Origin: Candidatus Omnitrophota bacterium | Lineage (GTDB): Bacteria; Omnitrophota; Gorgyraeia; Gygaellales; Profunditerraquicolaceae | Assembly (NCBI GenBank): GCA_041651115.1 | Contig: JBAZJY010000003.1 | Span: 270,252-334,251, forward strand | Length of the DNA stretch: 64,000 nt | Direction: 5' to 3' | Part shown: one piece after another, positions 1,450 through 41,714 of the stretch | Layout: each line of letters opens with the position of its first letter | Numbering within the stretch: position 1 is the first letter of the stretch | Notes under the pieces: generated by a model | Told to the model about the DNA's origin: nothing | Databases searched by the model: none | What the model saw: only the letters and a program-made list of their open reading frames with translations | Made by a program: the position numbers and the translations under genes

Positions 1450-1650
1450 TTACTTCTTAGCGTATTTCTTAATGAATTTATCCACTCTTCCGGCGGAATC
1501 AACAAACTTCTGTTTGCCGCTGAAAAAAGGATGGCATTTTGAGCATACTTCAACGCGGATATTCGGTTTTGTCGAACGCGTATGTATCGTATTCCCGCAT
1601 GCGCACACGACCACGCAATCCTGGTACTTGGGGTGAATTTTCTCTTTCAT
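1450..1650 (-). CDS. rpmE: 50S ribosomal protein L31 (Zn-ribbon type)
   Basis: 66 aa, MKEKIHPKY...CxxC...CSKCHPFF typical L31; SD aaggagag upstream. Confidence 0.9.
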
Positions 1651-1667
1651 TTTTCTCTCCTTTTTTT

Positions 1668-1741
1668 AGGGACGGTTCTCAGGCCAAAGGAAAAGTGTCC
1701 CCATTCGGGGACATTTTTCTCCTTGGCTGAAAACCGTCCCT
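1668..1741. repeat. REP-like imperfect palindromic element, copy A (about 35-bp arms, nested hairpin)
   Basis: agggacggttctc...aaaggaaaagtgtcccc attc ggggacatttttctcctt...gaaaaccgtccct; sits 5 nt after rho stop and about 18 nt before rpmE start; related copy at 24195..24269. Confidence 0.8.
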
Positions 1742-1746
1742 AATCA

Positions 1747-3003
1747 TTACTGGTTCATACTGCCTAAAAATTCCTCGTTGTTCTTTGTCTTAAGGAGCTT
1801 TTCGATCAAGAGCTCCATTGCTTCCACGTTGGTCAACTCATTAAGCACTTTCCTTAATATCCATGCCTTCTGCAAGATATCCGGCTTAAGCAACAGCTCT
1901 TCGTGGCGGGTATTGGAACGCTTAATATCAATGGCCGGATAGATCCTGCGCTGGAAGAGGTTTCTGTCCAACTGCAGTTCCATATTGCCGGTGCCTTTAA
2001 ATTCTTCAAAGATCACATCGTCCATACGGCTGCCCGTATCTACCAGCGCCGTGGCAATGATCGTCAGGCTCCCGCCCTCTTCAATGGCGCGCGCAGCTCC
2101 GAAGAACCGCTTTGGTTTTTGCAGGGCATTGGAATCAATACCGCCGGACAATACCTTTCCGCTGTGCGGCACAACCGAGTTATAGGCGCGCGCAAGCCGG
2201 GTAATGCTGTCCAATAGTATAACCACGTCCCGCTTATGCTCAACCAGACGCTTTGCCTTCTCAAGCACGATCTCCGCTACCTGAACGTGCCTTTCCGGAG
2301 GCTCGTCAAACGTGGAAGAAATAACTTCGCCCTTTACGTTGCGCTGCATATCCGTGACTTCCTCGGGGCGCTCGTCGATCAAAAGTACGATCAATATCGT
2401 TTCCGGTTGATTAGTGACGATGGCATTGGCGATCTTCTGCAGTAGTACGGTCTTTCCGCTGTAAGGAGGCGCGACGATCATGCCGCGCTGCCCCTTGCCG
2501 ATAGGCGCTAAAAGGTCCATGATCCGCATTGACGCTTCCTTAGGATTGGTCTCCAGCACAAAGTGTTCGCGCGGATAAACCGGAGTAAGGTTATCAAAGA
2601 GTATCTTCTCTTTTACGTCTTCGGGATTTTCAAAATTCACCGCCTGCACCTTAAGCAAGGCAAAGTATTTTTCGCCTTCTTTGGGCGGGCGGATCTCCCC
2701 GCTTACCGTGTCTCCGGTGCGCAAATCAAATTTCCTGATCTGCGACGGAGATATATATATATCATCCGGGCAAGGCAGGTAATTATAATTGGGGCTCCTT
2801 AAAAAACCGAATCCTTCGGGAAGGATCTCTAAAATGCCCTCTCCGAACATCAGCCCTTCCTTTTCCGCCTGGCCCTGCAGGATCTTAAAGATCAGGTCCT
2901 GCTTTTTGAGCCCGCTCATGCCGTTGACATTCAATTCTTTTGCCAGCTTGTTGAGCTCGGTAATTTTCATTTGTTTAAGTTTACCAATGTCTAATTTTTC
3001 CAC
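1747..3003 (-). CDS. rho: Transcription termination factor Rho
   Basis: 418 aa; N-terminal Rho_N / cold-shock-like RNA-binding domain; RecA-type ATPase with Walker motifs; GTG start preceded by AGGAGG SD (3008..3013). Confidence 0.95.
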
Positions 3004-3015
3004 AACATCCTCCTA

Positions 3016-3302
3016 GCTGAGCCTCCTGTAAATAATTGACACATTGGAAGCCCGAGTTTTGGCCGTATGCAAGGCGCGACGACGAAGGCGTAGTCTTTAG
3101 CACTACGCCGAGGAGGAGCAACGCCGCAGACGGCCGAAAGGCGGGCTTCCCCTCATCTATACTATGGGCTGGCTGATTTTGGGCTGCGACTGCGTCACTC
3201 GTCCTTGGCGTAGCGCTTATTCGGCTACGCCTGCGTCCTCGTTCCTTGTCTCGCTCCAAAATCAGCTCAGCCAATGTGTCAATTATTTACAGGAGGCTCA
3301 GC
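3016..3302 (-). other. 287-bp structured element flanked by 32-bp perfect inverted repeats in the coaE-rho intergenic region (rho 5' leader); MITE-like or regulatory RNA structure
   Basis: 3016..3047 gctgagcctcctgtaaataattgacacattgg is the exact reverse complement of 3271..3302; the interior is GC-rich with nested dyads and two similar sub-hairpins (ggcgtagt...actacgcc and ggcgtagc...gctacgcc); no ORF. Confidence 0.7.
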
Positions 3303-3895
3303 AGATTCTCCACTTGTTTTTTTGTTTGTTCCCTTGTGCCGCTGTTATCTATTACAAAATCCGCTTTACGGACCTTAGCCGTTAAAGGCATCTGCGCCTT
3401 TATCCGCATCAATATGTCTTTGCCTGAAAGCGAAGCTTTCCTTTTTTGGGCGCGCTTGACCTGCGCCTTCCTGTCTGCGGTTACGACAATTACCTTATCC
3501 GCTAATTGCTGGAGCCCCGACTCAAAAAGCAGCGGGATATCCAAAACCGCAACTTTTTGCCGGCCTGTTTTAGCTTCTTTTTTTATAGCCTTGACCACAC
3601 CGGGATGCACAATACTATTTAATCTATTTAAAAGCCTGGGGTTTGAAAATACTATCTGCGAGAGCTTACCCCGGTCAATACTTTTGTCTTTTTGAACTAT
3701 GCCCCTGCCGAATAACGCGACAACTTTTTTGTACGCGGATGTTCCGGGCTTAATCAGGCCGTGAGCGATCTTGTCCGCGTCAACTACCTTAGCCCCATAG
3801 CCGCGCAATAAGGATGCTATTGTGGTCTTACCCGTGGCAAAACCGCCTGTTACTGCCACCACTGTCCTCTTATTCAACTTTTCCGGCTTCTTCAT
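3287..3895 (-). CDS. coaE: Dephospho-CoA kinase
   Basis: P-loop VAVTGGFATGKTT, CoaE family; start taken at MKKPEK; last codons lie inside the right arm of the inverted-repeat element. Confidence 0.85.
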   Translation of the reverse strand: MKKPEKLNKRTVVAVTGGFATGKTTIASLLRGYGAKVVDADKIAHGLIKPGTSAYKKVVALFGRGIVQKDKSIDRGKLSQIVFSNPRLLNRLNSIVHPGVVKAIKKEAKTGRQKVAVLDIPLLFESGLQQLADKVIVVTADRKAQVKRAQKRKASLSGKDILMRIKAQMPLTAKVRKADFVIDNSGTREQTKKQVENLLSLL

Positions 3896-24183: not shown

Positions 24184-24194
24184 AATCACTCTTT

Positions 24195-24269
24195 AGGGAC
24201 GGTTCTTAACTCAAAGTTAAACTGTCCCCATAAAGGGGACACTTCTCCTTTAGTTTGAGAACCGTCCCT
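24195..24269. repeat. REP-like imperfect palindromic element, copy B
   Basis: agggacggttcttaactcaaagttaaactgtcccc ataaa ggggacacttctcctttagtttgagaaccgtccct; the same consensus arms as copy A; sits 4 nt after ahcY stop and 12 nt before pfkA ATG. Confidence 0.8.
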
Positions 24270-24273
24270 AAGC

Positions 24274-31395: not shown

Positions 31396-31473
<78 letters not shown>

Positions 31474-31505
31474 CATACTCGCTATTGCTTCTGTCAATTA
31501 AGTGG

Positions 31506-31594
31506 GCGGAAGAGGATTTTTAAGCCACCGTTATTTACTTTCAGTGGCGAAATCCCGCCTTTAATGGCGGGAGAACCTCCCGATTCCCTTCCGC
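31506..31594. other. 89-bp palindromic structured element between tRNA-Gly and tRNA-Leu (7-bp terminal stem GCGGAAG/CTTCCGC enclosing three hairpins); not a canonical tRNA
   Basis: Perfect terminal complementarity and internal stems GCCAC/GTGGC and CCCGCC/GGCGGG; no T-loop. Confidence 0.4.
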
Positions 31595-31610
31595 ACAATG
31601 TTAATAGTAG

Positions 31611-31692
31611 TGCGGACGGAGGGAGTTGAACCCCCAAGGGTCACCCCATCGGCTCCTAAGGCCGACGCGTATGCCAATTCCGCCACGTCCGC
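31611..31692 (-). tRNA. tRNA-Leu (anticodon TAG), long variable arm, CCA not encoded
   Basis: GCGGACG acceptor; anticodon loop CUUAGGA with G37; variable arm GGGGUGACCCUU; T-loop UUCAACU. Confidence 0.85.
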
Positions 31693-31708
31693 ATAGCGGA
31701 TAAAATAG

Positions 31709-31781
31709 TGAGCCTCCCGCGATTCGAACGCGGCACGGCCATCTTAAAAGGATGGTGCTCTACCAAATGAGCTAGAGGCCC
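31709..31781 (-). tRNA. tRNA-Lys (anticodon TTT), CCA not encoded
   Basis: GGGCCUC acceptor; anticodon loop CUUUUAA; T-loop UUCGAAU. Confidence 0.85.
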
Positions 31782-36245: not shown

Positions 36246-38033
36246 TTACTGTAATTCCTGCATTTGATAGAGCCGCTTATAAAGGCCGGATTTATCAAGC
36301 AGCCCGCTATGGCTGCCTTGCTCAACGATCTTGCCTTCGGAAAGAACAACTATCGTGCTTGCGTTCCTGACCGTTGAAAGCCGGTGAGCGATCACGAATA
36401 CCGTGCGGCCCTGCATCAGGCTGTCCAGCGCCTCCTGCACCAGCCGCTCTGAATGGGAATCAAGCTGCGAGGTTGCCTCGTCTAAAATTAAAATTGCCGG
36501 GTTTTTCAGCAGCGCCCGGGCAATGGCAATGCGTTGCCGCTCTCCTCCGGATAATTTCATACCCCGGTCTCCGATCACCGTGTCATAACCTTGAGGCAGG
36601 TGCTTGATAAAATCATGCGCATGCGCCTGTTTTGCCGCGCGCTCTATATTCTCGAGAGAAGCCTCAAGATGCCCGTAGGCGATATTCGCCCTGATCGTAT
36701 CGTTGAAAAGTATGGTATCCTGCGTAACTATCCCGATCGCCTGCCTGAGCGACTTAAGCGTAAAATCCTTGATATCCACCCCATCAATCAGTATCCGCCC
36801 CTTTTTGGGGTCATAGAAGCGCGGGATGAGATCCAATAGGGTAGTCTTTCCGGCTCCGCTTGGGCCGACAATTGCCAGGACTTGGCCCTTAGACACGGTT
36901 AAATTTACCCCTTTTAAAACCTCGTGGCTGCCGTAGCTTGTCCAGATATCCTGAAAATCTATTTTTTCTTTGAATCCGCTTAATTCCAGGGCATTGTTTT
37001 TCTCCGCTACGGTAACCGGCTCATCCAGTACCTCAAAGATCCGCTGTCCCGCAGCCACTGCCTGCTGGTTGATCGAATGCACCTGGCTTAATTTCTTAAA
37101 CGGCCTGATAAGAGAAAAAAATGACGCCATAAAAAATCCGACTACTCCGAAAGAAACACGGCCGGCCATTACCTCTTTGCCGGCGATCACGGCAACCGTC
37201 ACTCCGGCAACCGAACCCAATATTTCCGTCATCGGGCTAAGCATTGACATCCGCTTGATCGACCGCATGGAGATCTTATAATAACTGTTGTTGACTTCGT
37301 TGAACTTTCTGATCTCATACTCTTCCATGTTAAACGCCTTAACGATCCTTGTTCCAAGGATCGTCCCGTAAAGCAAAGAGTTCAAATCAGCCATTTTTTC
37401 CTGACCCTGGCGGGACAGTTTTTTTAAGACTCTGCCGACTTTATAGATAATGAATCCCATCACCGGCATGATCAGGAATACGGCGATCGCCAGCTTCGCG
37501 TAAATAAAGAATACCATGAAGGTAAAAATAACTACCTGGGAACCTTCGTAAACAAGGTCAGTCAAGCCGTAACAAACGGCATTCTCAATGAGTTTTGAGT
37601 CGTTGGTAATGCGGGAAATCAGTTCGCCGCCGCGCTTACGCGTAAAGTATTCCAGGGAAAGCAGCTGGAATTTTGCAAAGAGCTTATTGCGTATATCCCT
37701 GACGATGCGCTGGCCGATATCCGAGACAAAATAGCTTTGCAGGAAATTAAATATCCCTTTTAAGAAAAAAAGCACAATAATGCCGATAACGATATAACCC
37801 AGCAGGGTCTGCGGATCAGTATTGTTTATTCTATCGACAAGGCCTGCCACGGGAGCGGGCATCTTGGCAGGCAGGACAATTTGTTTATTGGTGAATATTT
37901 TGTCTACTAAAGGCAGGATCATTGCCAGCGATACTCCGCTGAACAAGGCAGAGAAAAACATAAATACCATAGACAAGGCAAATAATGCCTTGTATGGCTT
38001 AACGAATTTCAGTAATCTTATGTAATCACGCAT
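36246..38033 (-). CDS. msbA: ABC transporter, fused permease/ATPase (MsbA-like lipid exporter)
   Basis: 6 TM helices + NBD with GPSGAGKTT, LSGGERQRIAIARAL and ILDEATS. Confidence 0.8.
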   Translation of the reverse strand: MRDYIRLLKFVKPYKALFALSMVFMFFSALFSGVSLAMILPLVDKIFTNKQIVLPAKMPAPVAGLVDRINNTDPQTLLGYIVIGIIVLFFLKGIFNFLQSYFVSDIGQRIVRDIRNKLFAKFQLLSLEYFTRKRGGELISRITNDSKLIENAVCYGLTDLVYEGSQVVIFTFMVFFIYAKLAIAVFLIMPVMGFIIYKVGRVLKKLSRQGQEKMADLNSLLYGTILGTRIVKAFNMEEYEIRKFNEVNNSYYKISMRSIKRMSMLSPMTEILGSVAGVTVAVIAGKEVMAGRVSFGVVGFFMASFFSLIRPFKKLSQVHSINQQAVAAGQRIFEVLDEPVTVAEKNNALELSGFKEKIDFQDIWTSYGSHEVLKGVNLTVSKGQVLAIVGPSGAGKTTLLDLIPRFYDPKKGRILIDGVDIKDFTLKSLRQAIGIVTQDTILFNDTIRANIAYGHLEASLENIERAAKQAHAHDFIKHLPQGYDTVIGDRGMKLSGGERQRIAIARALLKNPAILILDEATSQLDSHSERLVQEALDSLMQGRTVFVIAHRLSTVRNASTIVVLSEGKIVEQGSHSGLLDKSGLYKRLYQMQELQ

Positions 38034-38057: not shown

Positions 38058-38109
38058 ATCTTATCACAATAAAATACTAGTTGCAAGCAAATAGCGGCTT
38101 TGCTATGAT
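38058..38109. promoter_or_regulatory. Back-to-back divergent sigma70-like promoters sharing the palindromic -35 hexamer TTGCAA (38081..38086): plus strand TTGCAA-17-TATGAT, minus strand TTGCAA-17-TAAGAT
   Basis: Spacing exactly 17 nt on both strands; the plus-strand -10 ends 7 nt before the ATG at 38117 (leaderless candidate). Confidence 0.5.
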
Positions 38110-38116
38110 GCTGGGT

Positions 38117-39040
38117 ATGGATAAACCGCGCATAGCAGTCATAGGGATAGGCCATTTAGGCAGCATCCATGCAAAGATATTAAGCGGCATGGATAATTGC
38201 CGGCTGGTCGGCGTATGCGATGTGGATAAGGCCCGCCTGAGCGAAGTTTCCAAACAGCTTGGAGTAGAAGGATTTGCTGATTACGTGGATTTATACGATA
38301 AGATCGATGCGGCAATTATTGCCGTGCCCACAAAGCTGCACCATAAAACAGCACTTGGATTCCTGGAACATAAAATAAATACATTTGTCGAAAAGCCGTT
38401 TACCTCTACGTTGGAACAAGCCGATTCCCTGATCCGGGCGGCAGAAGTAAATAAGCTAATACTGCAGGTCGGCCATATTGAAAGGTTCAATTCCGCGTTC
38501 AGCGCTACGCAAAAGCTGATCAAAGAACCCAAATTCATCGAATGCCACCGCTTAAGCCCCTTTCCAAACCGCTCGCTGGATGTAGGCGCGGTATTGGACA
38601 TTATGATCCACGACATTGACATCGTGCTCGGCCTTGTCCGGTCTAAGATCAAAAAGGTCGAATCCGTAGGCATCAACGTACTCACCCCCTTTGAAGACAT
38701 CGCGAATACCAGGATATCTTTTGAGAACGGCTGCGTAGCAAACCTTACTGCAAGCCGGATATCCGACGAAACAATGCGCAAGATCAGGATCTTCCAGGAA
38801 AATACCTATATCTCCCTTGACTATAAAGAAGCAAGGGCAAGTATATACAGGAAAAACGGCCCGGTGATCACCAAAGAAGACCTGCCCATTGAAAATGAAC
38901 AACCCCTGCAAAAGGAAATTGCTTCCTTTATTGACTGCGTAACCAGCCGCAAGGAGCCTCTGGTCTCAGGGCCGGTTGCCCGCGAGGCGCTGGCAGTAGC
39001 GCTGGAAATCCAAAAACAGATATGGCAGCAAAACAAATAA
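38117..39040 (+). CDS. Gfo/Idh/MocA-family NAD(P)-dependent oxidoreductase (possible UDP-GlcNAc 3-dehydrogenase GnnA-like, given the lipid A context)
   Basis: Rossmann N-terminus RIAVIGIGHLGSIHAK; start taken at ATG 38117 (the 38081 TTG lies inside the promoter); overlaps lpxB start by 19 nt. Confidence 0.7.
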   Translation: MDKPRIAVIGIGHLGSIHAKILSGMDNCRLVGVCDVDKARLSEVSKQLGVEGFADYVDLYDKIDAAIIAVPTKLHHKTALGFLEHKINTFVEKPFTSTLEQADSLIRAAEVNKLILQVGHIERFNSAFSATQKLIKEPKFIECHRLSPFPNRSLDVGAVLDIMIHDIDIVLGLVRSKIKKVESVGINVLTPFEDIANTRISFENGCVANLTASRISDETMRKIRIFQENTYISLDYKEARASIYRKNGPVITKEDLPIENEQPLQKEIASFIDCVTSRKEPLVSGPVAREALAVALEIQKQIWQQNK

Positions 39041-40158
39041 TCATCGTTTGCGGAGAGGCATCCGGAGACTTAAATGCCGCCGGCCTTGCTAAGGCGATAA
39101 AAGAAACTTCCCCGGAAACAAGAATCCTGGCTGTAGGCGGCAGGCAATTGGCTGCTGCGGGCGCCGAAATATTCTACGATATAAAAGGCCTTTCGGTAAT
39201 GGGGCTCTTTGATGTCTTCAAAAAACTTCCCCTTTTCTTTTCGCTAAAAAAACTTATCCTAAAAAAGGTCCGCGAAGAAAAACCGGATGCGCTGATCCTG
39301 GTGGATTTTTCGGGGTTTAATTTACGCCTGGCCAAGGCGATAAATAAATCCCTGCCGGTAATTTACTATGTCAGCCCGCAAGTATGGGCATCAAGGCCGG
39401 GCCGCGTCAGGACGATCAAAAAATATATCCATAAGATGGTTGTCCTGTTTAGTTTTGAAGAGGAATTTTACCGCAAGCACGGCGTGGAAGTTGAGTTTGC
39501 CGGGCATCCGCTGCTGGATATTGTGCGGCCGTCAATGGAAAAAAACGCGTTCCTTGCAAATCTTAGCCTTTCCGCGGCAAAAACGACGATCGCCCTTTTG
39601 CCCGGATCGCGGGAAGCGGAAATAAAGAACGTCCTTCCGGCCATGCTTAAGAGCGCTGAGATCATTGCCGGAAAAATTAAAGATGCGCAATTCATCATTG
39701 CTAAATCAGCGCAGGTAGAATTAGATACCTACGAAATTATAACGATGGATTTTAAGCCCGACCTGCGGATCATTGAAGACAAAACCTATGATTGCCTCAA
39801 CGCCGCGGATTTCTGCCTGGTTTGTTCCGGCACGGCAACGCTGGAAACAGCAATCATGCAAAAACCTTTGGCAGTGGTTTATAAAATGAACCTGCTAAAT
39901 TATTTGCTTTACCGGCCGCAGGTTAAAGTCCCTTATATCGGCATGGTCAATATCGTTGCCGGTAAAATGATCGCCCCGGAATTCATCCAATTCAGGGCAA
40001 AGCCGGCTGCGATCGCCTCTGCCGCATTAAAGGTCTTGAGCGACCCGGCACAGGCCGACAAAATGAAAAAAGACCTCGGTCAAATTAAGGCCTCTCTCGG
40101 CTCTGCCGGCGCCAGCTCCCGCGCCGCCAAAATCATCCTCAATTTCCTTAATAAATAA
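39022..40158 (+). CDS. lpxB: Lipid-A-disaccharide synthase
   Basis: MAAKQIIIVCGEASGDLNAAGLAKAIKE; 378 aa GT19. Confidence 0.9.
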   Translation: MAAKQIIIVCGEASGDLNAAGLAKAIKETSPETRILAVGGRQLAAAGAEIFYDIKGLSVMGLFDVFKKLPLFFSLKKLILKKVREEKPDALILVDFSGFNLRLAKAINKSLPVIYYVSPQVWASRPGRVRTIKKYIHKMVVLFSFEEEFYRKHGVEVEFAGHPLLDIVRPSMEKNAFLANLSLSAAKTTIALLPGSREAEIKNVLPAMLKSAEIIAGKIKDAQFIIAKSAQVELDTYEIITMDFKPDLRIIEDKTYDCLNAADFCLVCSGTATLETAIMQKPLAVVYKMNLLNYLLYRPQVKVPYIGMVNIVAGKMIAPEFIQFRAKPAAIASAALKVLSDPAQADKMKKDLGQIKASLGSAGASSRAAKIILNFLNK

Positions 40159-40373
40159 TCGCCATTAAGATTTTCCGTCTGCCTTGTCTTGCTTTTCGCA
40201 GGGACGCTCGCCCCGCCCAGCGTGCGGGGCTTCGCTCGGGAGTCGGCTTTCGCTCTCCCCGCCGTTGTTGGAGACAAACGGCGAGGATCCATGCCCGCTC
40301 AAGCCTCCTCACGCCCTGCTCAAAGCAAGCCAAGTCAGCCGCAAAATTATAACAATCTTCATTTATAACTGAA

Positions 40374-40598
40374 CCTGCCGGCTCTTTGAGCGAAGTTTGG
40401 GCCGATTTAGCCAATGAAGCTTAAGTGAGCGAGGGAATCCGAACGTGAAAAGGTTCGGACGGCGAGGATGTTTGAGCCCGTCCTGGCGCGTAAGCGCCGA
40501 CGGGCGAGTTCCGCAGCCGCCGAGCTCACGAAAGATTCATTGGCGGTCCTGCGTAAGACGAAGGAAAAGCGGCACACTGAGCGAAAAGAGCCGGCAGG
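40374..40598 (+). ncRNA. Candidate structured small RNA (about 225 nt) closed by a 14-bp perfect stem; 6S-like rod architecture, identity unknown
   Basis: cctgccggctcttt (40374..40387) pairs perfectly with aaagagccggcagg (40585..40598); internal helices ccaatgaa/ttcattgg, gtgagc/gctcac, gcccgtc/gacgggc, ggcgc/gcgcc; local GC far above the genome average; AT-rich TATAAC -10-like box ends 7 nt upstream; strand uncertain. Confidence 0.45.
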
Positions 40599-40607
40599 TT
40601 TAGTTAG

Positions 40608-41714
40608 CTATAGAATAAATTTTTCGGCTAATGCGATGCGTTCGGAGGTTGGCGGATGGTCAAAGAAAAAGAACTTAATAAGCGGGTGCGGGTTACGGTC
40701 GGCAAGGTTTTGCTCGGAAAGCTTATTCATCATAGAAATGAATGTCTCCTTCATTCCCGTTGCCTTAAGCGCGGCAAGGTCAGCATCTTTCTCAAAACGC
40801 CGGCTTAAAAAATTTTCCAGCGGCTGCATCACGACTCCAAAAACGGTCATATACATTATCACCAGGGGAAAAGCAGCAATGTCTTCCAGCGAAACAAAGC
40901 CAAATAATTCCAAACAATGGGCATTACTGACAAAAATAACATAAAACAGCAACAAGGTCATAAGCGCATTTATCAAGATCAGCTTCAGCAGGTGCTTCAT
41001 CCGGTAATGGCTGAATTCATGCGCCAATATCACTTCTATCTCATCGTAAGAGTATTTATCCTTTAGCGTATCGGCGAGGATCACCCGCCGCGTCCTGCCC
41101 CAGCCCACAAAGGCCGCGTTTGCCTTGAGGGTTTTCTTACTGAAATCGATCTCAAAAACATCCAGTATCTTTACGCGCATCTTTTCCGCCAGCTTTACGA
41201 TGCGCTCTCTAAGCGCGGAGTCTTCCAGTTGCCGGTATTTAAAAAACAGCGGGATAATCGCAACCGGCAGGATCTTTGCCATTATCAGACTGAAAAATAT
41301 CCAAAATAAGGCAACCATAAACCACCACGTATGCGGATTGCGCCCTAATACATAATAAAAAGCGCCGAAAAGCATAAGGCCGATGATATAGGATAATACG
41401 CCTGCCTTAAGCTGATCAATGAGCCATGCCCCAAACTTTTGATTTGTCAGGCCGAATTTGTGTTCAAGCATAAACGAGCGGTAAAAATTAAGCGGGAATG
41501 TCAAAACAGACGACAAGATAAGTATGCCTAGCAAATAGGCGGGAAAAACCAAATAATCTTGCCTGAAAAAAACAGATGCGCTTGCGGCAAGCCATGACGA
41601 AAATCCGGACTTAAGCAGCAGCACGATCAGCGCCAATAAATAAACCGTATCAAAAATAGCAAGGCTGTATTTAATGCGGCAGTAGCTGCCGGCCTTATCT
41701 ACCGGGCCTCTCAA
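40608..41714 (-). CDS. M48-family zinc metalloprotease (Ste24/HtpX-like) integral membrane protein
   Basis: HEFSHYRMKH HExxH motif within a multi-TM protein. Confidence 0.8.
   Translation of the reverse strand: MRGPVDKAGSYCRIKYSLAIFDTVYLLALIVLLLKSGFSSWLAASASVFFRQDYLVFPAYLLGILILSSVLTFPLNFYRSFMLEHKFGLTNQKFGAWLIDQLKAGVLSYIIGLMLFGAFYYVLGRNPHTWWFMVALFWIFFSLIMAKILPVAIIPLFFKYRQLEDSALRERIVKLAEKMRVKILDVFEIDFSKKTLKANAAFVGWGRTRRVILADTLKDKYSYDEIEVILAHEFSHYRMKHLLKLILINALMTLLLFYVIFVSNAHCLELFGFVSLEDIAAFPLVIMYMTVFGVVMQPLENFLSRRFEKDADLAALKATGMKETFISMMNKLSEQNLADRNPHPLIKFFFFDHPPTSERIALAEKFIL

Follow-up and report, generated by a model that had tools for sequence, protein, structure and literature searches.

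The question raised by the locus considered here is what occupies a GC-rich, non-coding gap in the genome of a Candidatus Omnitrophota bacterium. The gap lies between lpxB and the gene for an M48-family peptidase, which converge on it, within a stretch of 64,000 nucleotides referred to below as the window. Omnitrophota are uncultured, very small bacteria, and to our knowledge their non-coding repertoire is essentially uncharted. A preliminary description of this DNA saw in part of the gap a candidate novel structured RNA, closed by a perfect 14-bp stem, preceded by a promoter-like hexamer and resembling 6S RNA in its architecture. It must be asked whether the gap contains such a gene or something of another kind.

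Two structured modules in the lpxB-M48 gap

Both neighbors of the gap were confirmed by Pfam. The left one is lpxB, at 39022-40158 on the plus strand (LpxB, 1.8e-92), and the right one, at 40608-41714 on the minus strand, encodes an M48-family peptidase (Peptidase_M48_N and Peptidase_M48). The GC-rich character ascribed to the gap was borne out, with GC fractions of 0.53-0.60 across it compared with roughly 0.41-0.53 in the adjoining genes. A GFO/IDH/MocA oxidoreductase gene overlaps lpxB (window 38081-40158), and a transporter gene with ABC_membrane and ABC_tran domains (36246-38033) is divergent from the oxidoreductase gene. This GFO-lpxB/ABC transporter gene order is kept across Omnitrophota loci, and we take the group to resemble a lipid-A cluster (GnnA-like, LpxB, MsbA-like). 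An identical lpxB product is present on the ENA contig ERZ27247363:k141_2792708.

The gap is filled by a composite of two elements, module A and module B, the only such composite in the 64-kb window (Table 1). The preliminary description had placed its element at 40374-40598; the rest of the gap (40166-40355) proved to be a second conserved structured module and not mere GC-rich background.

Table 1. Features of the composite element, in window coordinates
Feature	Position	Strand	Remarks
Module A	40166..40355	-	About 185 nt; match to covariance model R2 of 150.2 bits on the minus strand vs 33.7 bits on the plus strand
AT-rich A-B spacer	40348..40365		In other composites 2-74 nt between hits, most <20
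Module B	40363..40608	+	About 245 nt; closing stem, G.A-motif internal loops, rod and apical three-way junction; match to covariance model R1 of 144.9 bits
Module B closing stem, 5' arm	40366..40387	+	22 bp, including the 14-mer at 40374-40387; inverted repeat
Module B closing stem, 3' arm	40585..40606	+	Ends 1 nt before the M48 peptidase stop codon
Basal internal loop, 5' half, GAGCGAAG	40388..40395	+	Family consensus UUUCGAGCGAAUG; G29-A33 invariant in alignment A1
Basal internal loop, 3' half, GAGCGAAA	40579..40586	+	Family consensus UGAGCGAGAAA
Hairpin of the apical three-way junction (UCCGAAC...GUUCGGA)	40438..40459	+	Predicted fold
Apical hairpin GCCCGUC-CUGGCGC-GUAA-GCGCC-GACGGGC	40476..40505	+	Predicted fold
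Optional small hairpin, 3' side of the rod	40545..40566	+	Only in some copies: window, L194, L135, L155, L011

In module B the 14-mers cctgccggctcttt (40374-40387) and aaagagccggcagg (40585-40598) are perfectly complementary, as had been described, and the closing helix extends outward from them to 22 bp. The extended stem has one G-U, which pairs on the plus strand only. The predicted RNA fold of the plus strand of 40374-40598 has an energy of -121.5 kcal/mol, compared with -79.1 +/- 4.3 kcal/mol for dinucleotide shuffles (z = -9.9; none of 200 shuffles as good), and that of the minus strand has an energy of -108.5 kcal/mol (z = -8.7). All of the inner helices listed earlier were recovered in the predicted plus-strand fold, and the repeated GAGCGAA is present on the plus strand at 40388 and 40579. 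Five of the 23 GAGCGA sites in the window fall in the 450-nt gap; B has three of them, on the plus strand, and A the other two, on the minus strand. The two basal loop halves of module B can, on paper, form G-C pairs flanked by tandem G.A/A.G mismatches. The likeness to 6S RNA did not survive, for the apex of the predicted fold is a three-way junction, and there are small basal G.A loops and no central bubble.

The hexamer TATAAC (40364-40369), reported as a -10 box ending about 7 nt before the helix, ends 4 nt before it, and its last four bases lie in the extended stem. Scanning of 39900-40900 yielded no sigma-70-like site and one terminator-like site, which is within the number expected by chance. 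With TATAAC forming part of the closing stem, the upstream spacer unconserved, and no promoter or terminator consensus found, the idea that the element has its own promoter was given up.

Every helix of the two modules is maintained by compensatory substitutions. For module B, 14 full-length copies were aligned (alignment A1), and a consensus derived with RNAalifold has 65 pairs, of which 37 show compensatory changes on both sides. The proportion of paired cells is 93.5%, compared with 80.2% in shuffles and 37-45% when partners were slid, and none of 500 shuffles attains any of the observed measures. Columns 8-17/308-317 of A1, in the closing stem, covary (AU/CG, CG/UA, GC/AU); helices 8-9, the hairpin of the apical junction, are 98-100% paired with seven compensatory pairs; and in helix 13, the apical hairpin GCCCGUC...GACGGGC, nine of nine pairs have changed on both sides. 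Since homologues with many compensatory changes exist in relatives, the element is not unique to this genome, and the proposal of a structured non-coding element was correct.

Searches with covariance model R1 found 32 B-type elements in some 630 kb of sequence from related loci. Among them are mini-B forms, 94-111 nt long, which are reduced to the closing stem, the pair of conserved loop strands (UUUCGAGCGAAUG and UGAGCGAGAAA) and one short hairpin. A divergent interior, designated B2, is common to L006 (7421-7675), L008 (5101-5412), L053 (5083-5370), L010 and L079. One B copy (L114 3418-3692) has about 55 nt inserted in an apical hairpin loop, and the B match at L148 6695-6979 spans 285 nt, which suggests that the apical domains tolerate or accumulate insertions. 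A hidden small ORF or type I toxin in B was considered and rejected: the 22-codon ATG frame of L087 stops after four codons in the window. The indels in the B alignment have lengths that are not multiples of three.

Module A consists of a long imperfect closing rod, a helix, P2, and the hairpins H1 (40209-40230) and H3 (approximately 40255-40288). Its junctions carry strings that are invariant on the minus strand: GAGCAGGGCGU, GAGCGGGCA, GAGAGCGA, CGAGCG and GCGUCCCUGCGAGAAA. When the whole 452-nt gap was used as the query in blastn and nhmmer searches, the left half, corresponding to A, was found to be conserved more strongly than B. Covariance model R2, built on the window minus strand, gave 94 A-type hits in about 630 kb of related loci. 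In these hits 90.9% of cells are paired, compared with 74.9% after shuffling; 34 of 38 pairs are compensatory, and none of 500 shuffles was as good. A long-range helix between two variable segments, X and Y, appeared plausible by eye. It was left out of the model of module A because the energies of own and cross duplexes, -9.0 vs -7.6 kcal/mol, differ little. An A-type element with normal termini and a different core is present at L045 7578-7758. In L102, L167 and L111 the right flank of module A has another conserved string, ATATTTTGCCGARRGRTATTG, which may represent yet another module type.

The two modules fold better on opposite strands, the preferred strand being set by the folding energies of individual copies. 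Module A folds better on the window minus strand in 38 of 40 copies (mean -78.3 vs -68.9 kcal/mol); for module B the plus strand is the better one in all 14 copies (mean -104.0 vs -89.8 kcal/mol). Counting of G-U pairs on the first MAFFT/alifold structure was discarded for this choice, since a mispredicted hairpin in that structure made it misleading. On their better-folding strands the rods of A(-) and B(+) both begin with 5'-UUUCGAGC...GCGAGAAA-3'. Judged from its nucleotides, this shared basal motif can form U-A and C-G pairs around a putative tandem G.A/A.G step, and module B has a second such step, also presumed to pair in a non-canonical manner.

Of 30 B-type hits, 18 have module A directly upstream, and its orientation relative to B never varies. 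It follows from this fixed arrangement, and from the opposite better strands, that the G-rich strands point away from the AT-rich spacer. Neither the length nor the sequence of the spacer is conserved in the composites compared by eye. A and B are different elements, which fold separately and do not pair with each other, and the modules are found as A alone, B alone, A and B joined, or minimal forms that keep the basal stem only.

Comparison with Rfam 15 did not assign either module to a known family. At the gathering threshold the sole hits in the window are three tRNA genes (31401-31781, minus strand), and cmscan of 40100-40700 at E <= 10 gave only a chance match to CRISPR-DR28 (E = 7). Other copies of both modules gave nothing relevant. 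RNase P, tmRNA and SRP motifs had not been recognised by inspection; apart from the chance match no Rfam 15 family matches even at E < 10.

Distribution and turnover of the elements

The first loci were collected by means of the peptidase gene. All 80 of these peptidase-anchored loci belong to MAGs that are assigned to Candidatus Omnitrophota or bear the label 'uncultured Planctomycetales', and 22 of the 80 Omnitrophota species-representative loci carry at least one module within about 9 kb. In this set all copies are situated in the two gaps that flank the GFO-lpxB operon, M48-lpxB and GFO-ABC transporter. In many species these gaps are short, 0-130 nt, and with elements in them they measure 180-850 nt.

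Metagenomes were then scanned with a module-A pattern, and the figures that follow refer to the matches listed. True copies were found on at least 65 metagenome contigs, with up to three copies within 6 kb (L088) and several contigs with two or three copies in 6-9 kb. The flanking genes are diverse and of the housekeeping type, and include folD, leuS, tgt, rpsI, crcB, queD and a gene for a heptosyltransferase (family-9 glycosyltransferase). With respect to co-directional neighbors, about 17 copies have the same orientation and 11 the opposite one in the tally among the matches listed. The same gaps are occupied in many species, namely M48-lpxB, GFO-ABC and that downstream of the heptosyltransferase gene. 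A cis-regulator specific to lpxB was rejected as a candidate: among the matches listed, copies fetched by their own sequence adjoin lpxB in only one case. The link to the lpxB operon is a sampling artefact, since the first loci had been chosen by the peptidase anchor and copies found by their own sequence are rarely beside lpxB. At L114 a tRNA gene (3132-3203) lies about 20 nt upstream of an A+B composite.

Copies sharing a contig are only 52-85% identical, and a recent burst is therefore not indicated. Different helix subtypes are represented among them, yet each copy scores >100 bits with the models. Some 60 nucleotides in junctions and loops hardly vary between species in which identity of the M48 peptidase is down to about 55-60%. 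Association with phages was sought in three pattern scans of viral contigs, which gave chance matches only and no covariance-model hit.

Modules B and A are thus units of a previously undescribed, modular, dispersed, many-copy family of intergenic elements that extends across many Omnitrophota species, and a literature search found no prior description of such elements in this group. The description of the element as a novel structured non-coding RNA therefore stands in part: its conserved fold is real and unmatched in Rfam, but the element is no discrete single gene, being multi-copy, modular, dispersed and present in both orientations.

Turnover was evident among relatives whose M48 genes are 85-89% identical at the nucleotide level. 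Pairs in which the gap is filled in one member and empty in the other are L050/L074, L013/L012 and L053/L041. In the orthologous M48-lpxB gap, L045 and L046 have A copies of one subtype (77% identity) that face opposite ways, and in the other orthologous gap L045 has an A-type element with its termini kept and its core replaced. L013 (7193-8042) differs from L012 (7211-7315) by a 745-bp insertion, the edges of which coincide with A termini. The insertion contains A(+), an ORF beginning MNQRKTAFTLIELIIVVVIIGILA, which, as read from the DNA, we take to be a prepilin-type N-terminus, and an inverted mini-A with the closing rod only. In L193, the region 1650-3140 contains A(+), a truncated IS256-family (Transposase_mut) ORF at 2091-2765, B(+), and an inverted 5' half-A abutting B, together with additional starts of A and a tandem repeat of 22 nt at 1725-1772. 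Individual copies have been gained, lost and inverted on short evolutionary time scales, and the fold, especially the basal stem with its G.A motif, has been preserved.

Other palindromic sequences were observed in the window. A 292-nt near-palindrome at 3013-3304 has a closing stem of about 32 bp; the region 3000-3320 has a predicted RNA fold of -170.3 kcal/mol (z = -13.5), with long ORFs listed on both strands, and this second rod was present in no fetched locus. Two copies of an almost perfect 78-nt hairpin, TTAGGGACGGTTCT...AGAACCGTCCCTAA, are found at 1666-1743 and 24193-24271. Hairpins of this family fill the short M48-lpxB gap and other gaps in L006, L052, L078, L111, L034, L032, L079 and others, and their presence in many loci indicates a second, REP-like dispersed repeat of Omnitrophota.

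Possible nature of the family

REPINs lie between genes and are predicted to fold into hairpins as ssDNA or mRNA; compensatory changes in them are common, and they are moved by a single-copy tyrosine transposase (PMC3116915). The explanation tentatively preferred here, with a probability of about 0.45, is that the Omnitrophota family is a new, unusually large, fold-dependent and non-autonomous repeat of the REPIN/MITE type. The folded single strand, either ssDNA or RNA, and above all its basal G.A-motif stem, would be recognised by an enzyme encoded elsewhere in the genome. At the lpxB/M48 gap the composite would reach the RNA level only in the form of a 3' tail on one or the other mRNA and not as a free sRNA, and the very stable rods in such tails may act as 3'-end barriers or as substrates for RNase III. 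Strand-specific folding, modularity, dispersal, turnover and compensatory changes all speak for a replicator. Several points can be raised against it. Neither a mobilising enzyme nor a target-site duplication was found in the tested loci, which were at most about 14 kb long; the units are several times the size of any known REP or REPIN and far more complex; the retention of pairing at 52-85% identity could equally mean that the copies are useful to the host; and some 60 near-invariant junction nucleotides would not be needed in a pure "hairpin for a transposase".

The last two points bring forward a host-functional, multi-copy family of structured RNAs, each copy of which would be selected for its use to the cell. 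This is the main rival, and we regard it as less likely. The basal tandem-G.A stem would bind a protein, or the rods would stabilise, terminate or process the flanking mRNAs, in the manner of E. coli REP/BIME sequences. The head-to-head A(-)/B(+) composite would offer one optimally folding module whichever the direction of transcription, and each of the convergent mRNAs in the window would end in the better-folding module. With such a function it would be understandable that about 91-93% of cells are still paired in a family whose copies on one contig have diverged so far, and that junction and loop nucleotides have changed so little in comparison with the M48 peptidase. G-U pairs, tandem G.A features and a folding advantage of one strand are typical of RNA, and the occupation of the same gaps (M48-lpxB, GFO-ABC, downstream of the heptosyltransferase gene) in many species points in the same direction. 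A host function explains the invariant nucleotides and the pairing in divergent copies better than does a replicator; it explains less well the orientation to neighboring genes, which is near random in the tally among the matches listed, and the dispensability of individual copies between close relatives. It is also at odds with the lack of a conserved promoter or terminator, with A-B spacers that vary widely in length and are unconserved in sequence, and with the mini forms, nested or truncated copies and replaced cores, which look like the decay of mobile elements.

The elements might also be classical MITEs, that is, internally deleted insertion sequences with a DDE transposase, in which the stems are TIRs bound as double-stranded DNA and the RNA fold is incidental. 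Small, non-coding, dispersed elements with inverted termini would be expected of such a family; mini-A and mini-B retain mainly their termini, variants with common termini have different interiors, and the insertion in L013, bounded by inverted A termini with a gene inside, is like a composite element. Folding as RNA is known in the Correia, ERIC, RUP and bcr1 families (PMC3184786). Nevertheless, this origin is improbable on several grounds. No excess of direct repeats indicative of a target-site duplication was detected around 73 A copies for k = 2-8 at any boundary offset, the empty and filled sites of L012 and L013 give an ambiguous picture on this point, and no autonomous element sharing the termini was present in about 1.3 Mb of fetched loci. 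The termini are indeed inverted repeats, but several of their positions covary and are not fixed, both in the B stem AAU-NNNN-CUGG (columns 11-14) and in helix 1 of A. Multi-helix cores with extensive compensation and a bias to one strand would be unexpected if recognition were of double-stranded DNA.

The search for a mobility partner was also negative in other respects. No recurrent transposase was found among 331 clustered flanking ORFs and no Y1 transposase among 20 flanking ORFs scanned in the loci of about 9 kb; the small flanking ORFs are ordinary genes. An IS256-type partner was rejected, as the Transposase_mut ORF of L193, the sole transposase in the neighborhood of the copies, is truncated and without a homologue in the other loci.

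A stand-alone sRNA gene with its own promoter, 6S-like or otherwise unique, would agree with the long closing stem, the high GC in a lower-GC genome, the very stable fold and the real covariation, but it is scarcely credible, and its 6S-like form is practically excluded by copy number, context and architecture, since the elements are multi-copy and dispersed, neither 6S nor any other relevant Rfam family matches at E < 10, the apex is a three-way junction, TATAAC overlaps the extended stem, no promoter or terminator consensus was found, and the neighboring module A belongs to the same repeated unit.

The basal stem common to A(-), B(+) and the mini forms, with its double tandem-G.A motif (UUUCGAGC...GCGAGAAA), invites a more far-reaching and more speculative idea, which we consider unlikely. 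It could be the handle of machinery specific to the Omnitrophota, serving either a fold-dependent replicator whose ribozyme-sized cores aid its own mobility, or a genome-wide RNA-protein regulatory network of dozens of paralogous RNAs. In either case the family would be more than an enlarged REP or MITE.

The two covariance models, R1 and R2, describe widespread large elements that are absent from Rfam 15, and they can serve for the annotation of Omnitrophota genomes. With their help, assembly breaks and GC-rich "orphan" intergenic regions can be accounted for, and the re-reporting of such regions as unique sRNAs can be prevented. The family joins behavior like that of mobile elements to strong selection on a branched fold and to a strand-specific motif resembling a protein site. 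This makes it a tractable case for the question of how intragenomic replicators persist, and the G.A-motif stem is a target for finding the partner protein.

Comparison with known systems

A genome has one or two genes dedicated to 6S RNA, with a separate promoter and terminator for each, and the RNA binds the holoenzyme of RNA polymerase with sigma-70 and serves as a template for product RNAs. The modules resemble 6S RNA (RF00013 and relatives) in size, which falls in the range of about 180-250 nt, in their long closing helix and in the presence of internal loops. They differ from it in being multi-copy, in the absence of a covariance-model match and of any promoter or terminator of their own that could be found, and in their branched apex, where 6S RNA has a central bubble that mimics an open promoter.

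A closer likeness is seen with the Correia elements of Neisseria, the enterobacterial ERIC sequences, the pneumococcal BOX A/B/C and RUP elements, and bcr1 of Bacillus cereus. These are likewise non-coding, intergenic, 100-450 bp in length and co-transcribed with their neighbors, and their folds are long stem-loops; BOX is built of modules, and the RNA of bcr1 has two stems and resembles a cruciform (PMC3184786). In contrast to the Omnitrophota elements, in which the termini covary and no target duplication was found, they have conserved TIRs and usually TA or other target duplications. Set against their descriptions, the extent of covariation and the branching of the cores are greater here, and the phylum is a different one.

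In BIMEs, short linkers of variable sequence connect units that are inverted relative to each other, and A and B are joined in a similar way in the composite. With the REP/REPIN/BIME-RAYT systems the family further shares its intergenic, many-copy, palindromic elements in either orientation, the absence of target-site duplications, a frequent location between convergent genes, and hairpin pairing that is kept by compensatory changes (PMC3116915). There are also clear differences. The Omnitrophota units are 170-245 nt long, with three-way junctions and about 60 invariant junction nucleotides, compared with 20-40 nt for REPs and approximately 70-110 nt for REPINs. A REPIN consists of two inverted copies of one REP in one hairpin, whereas A and B are distinct elements. 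Within a contig the copies have diverged strongly, the family is present in many species of a phylum-level group, and no RAYT, a Y1 HUH transposase, was identified in the flanking loci. In kind, the family is an interspersed palindromic repeat; it is unusual in its size of 170-245 nt per module, its branching, the depth of its covariation and its phylum-wide spread.
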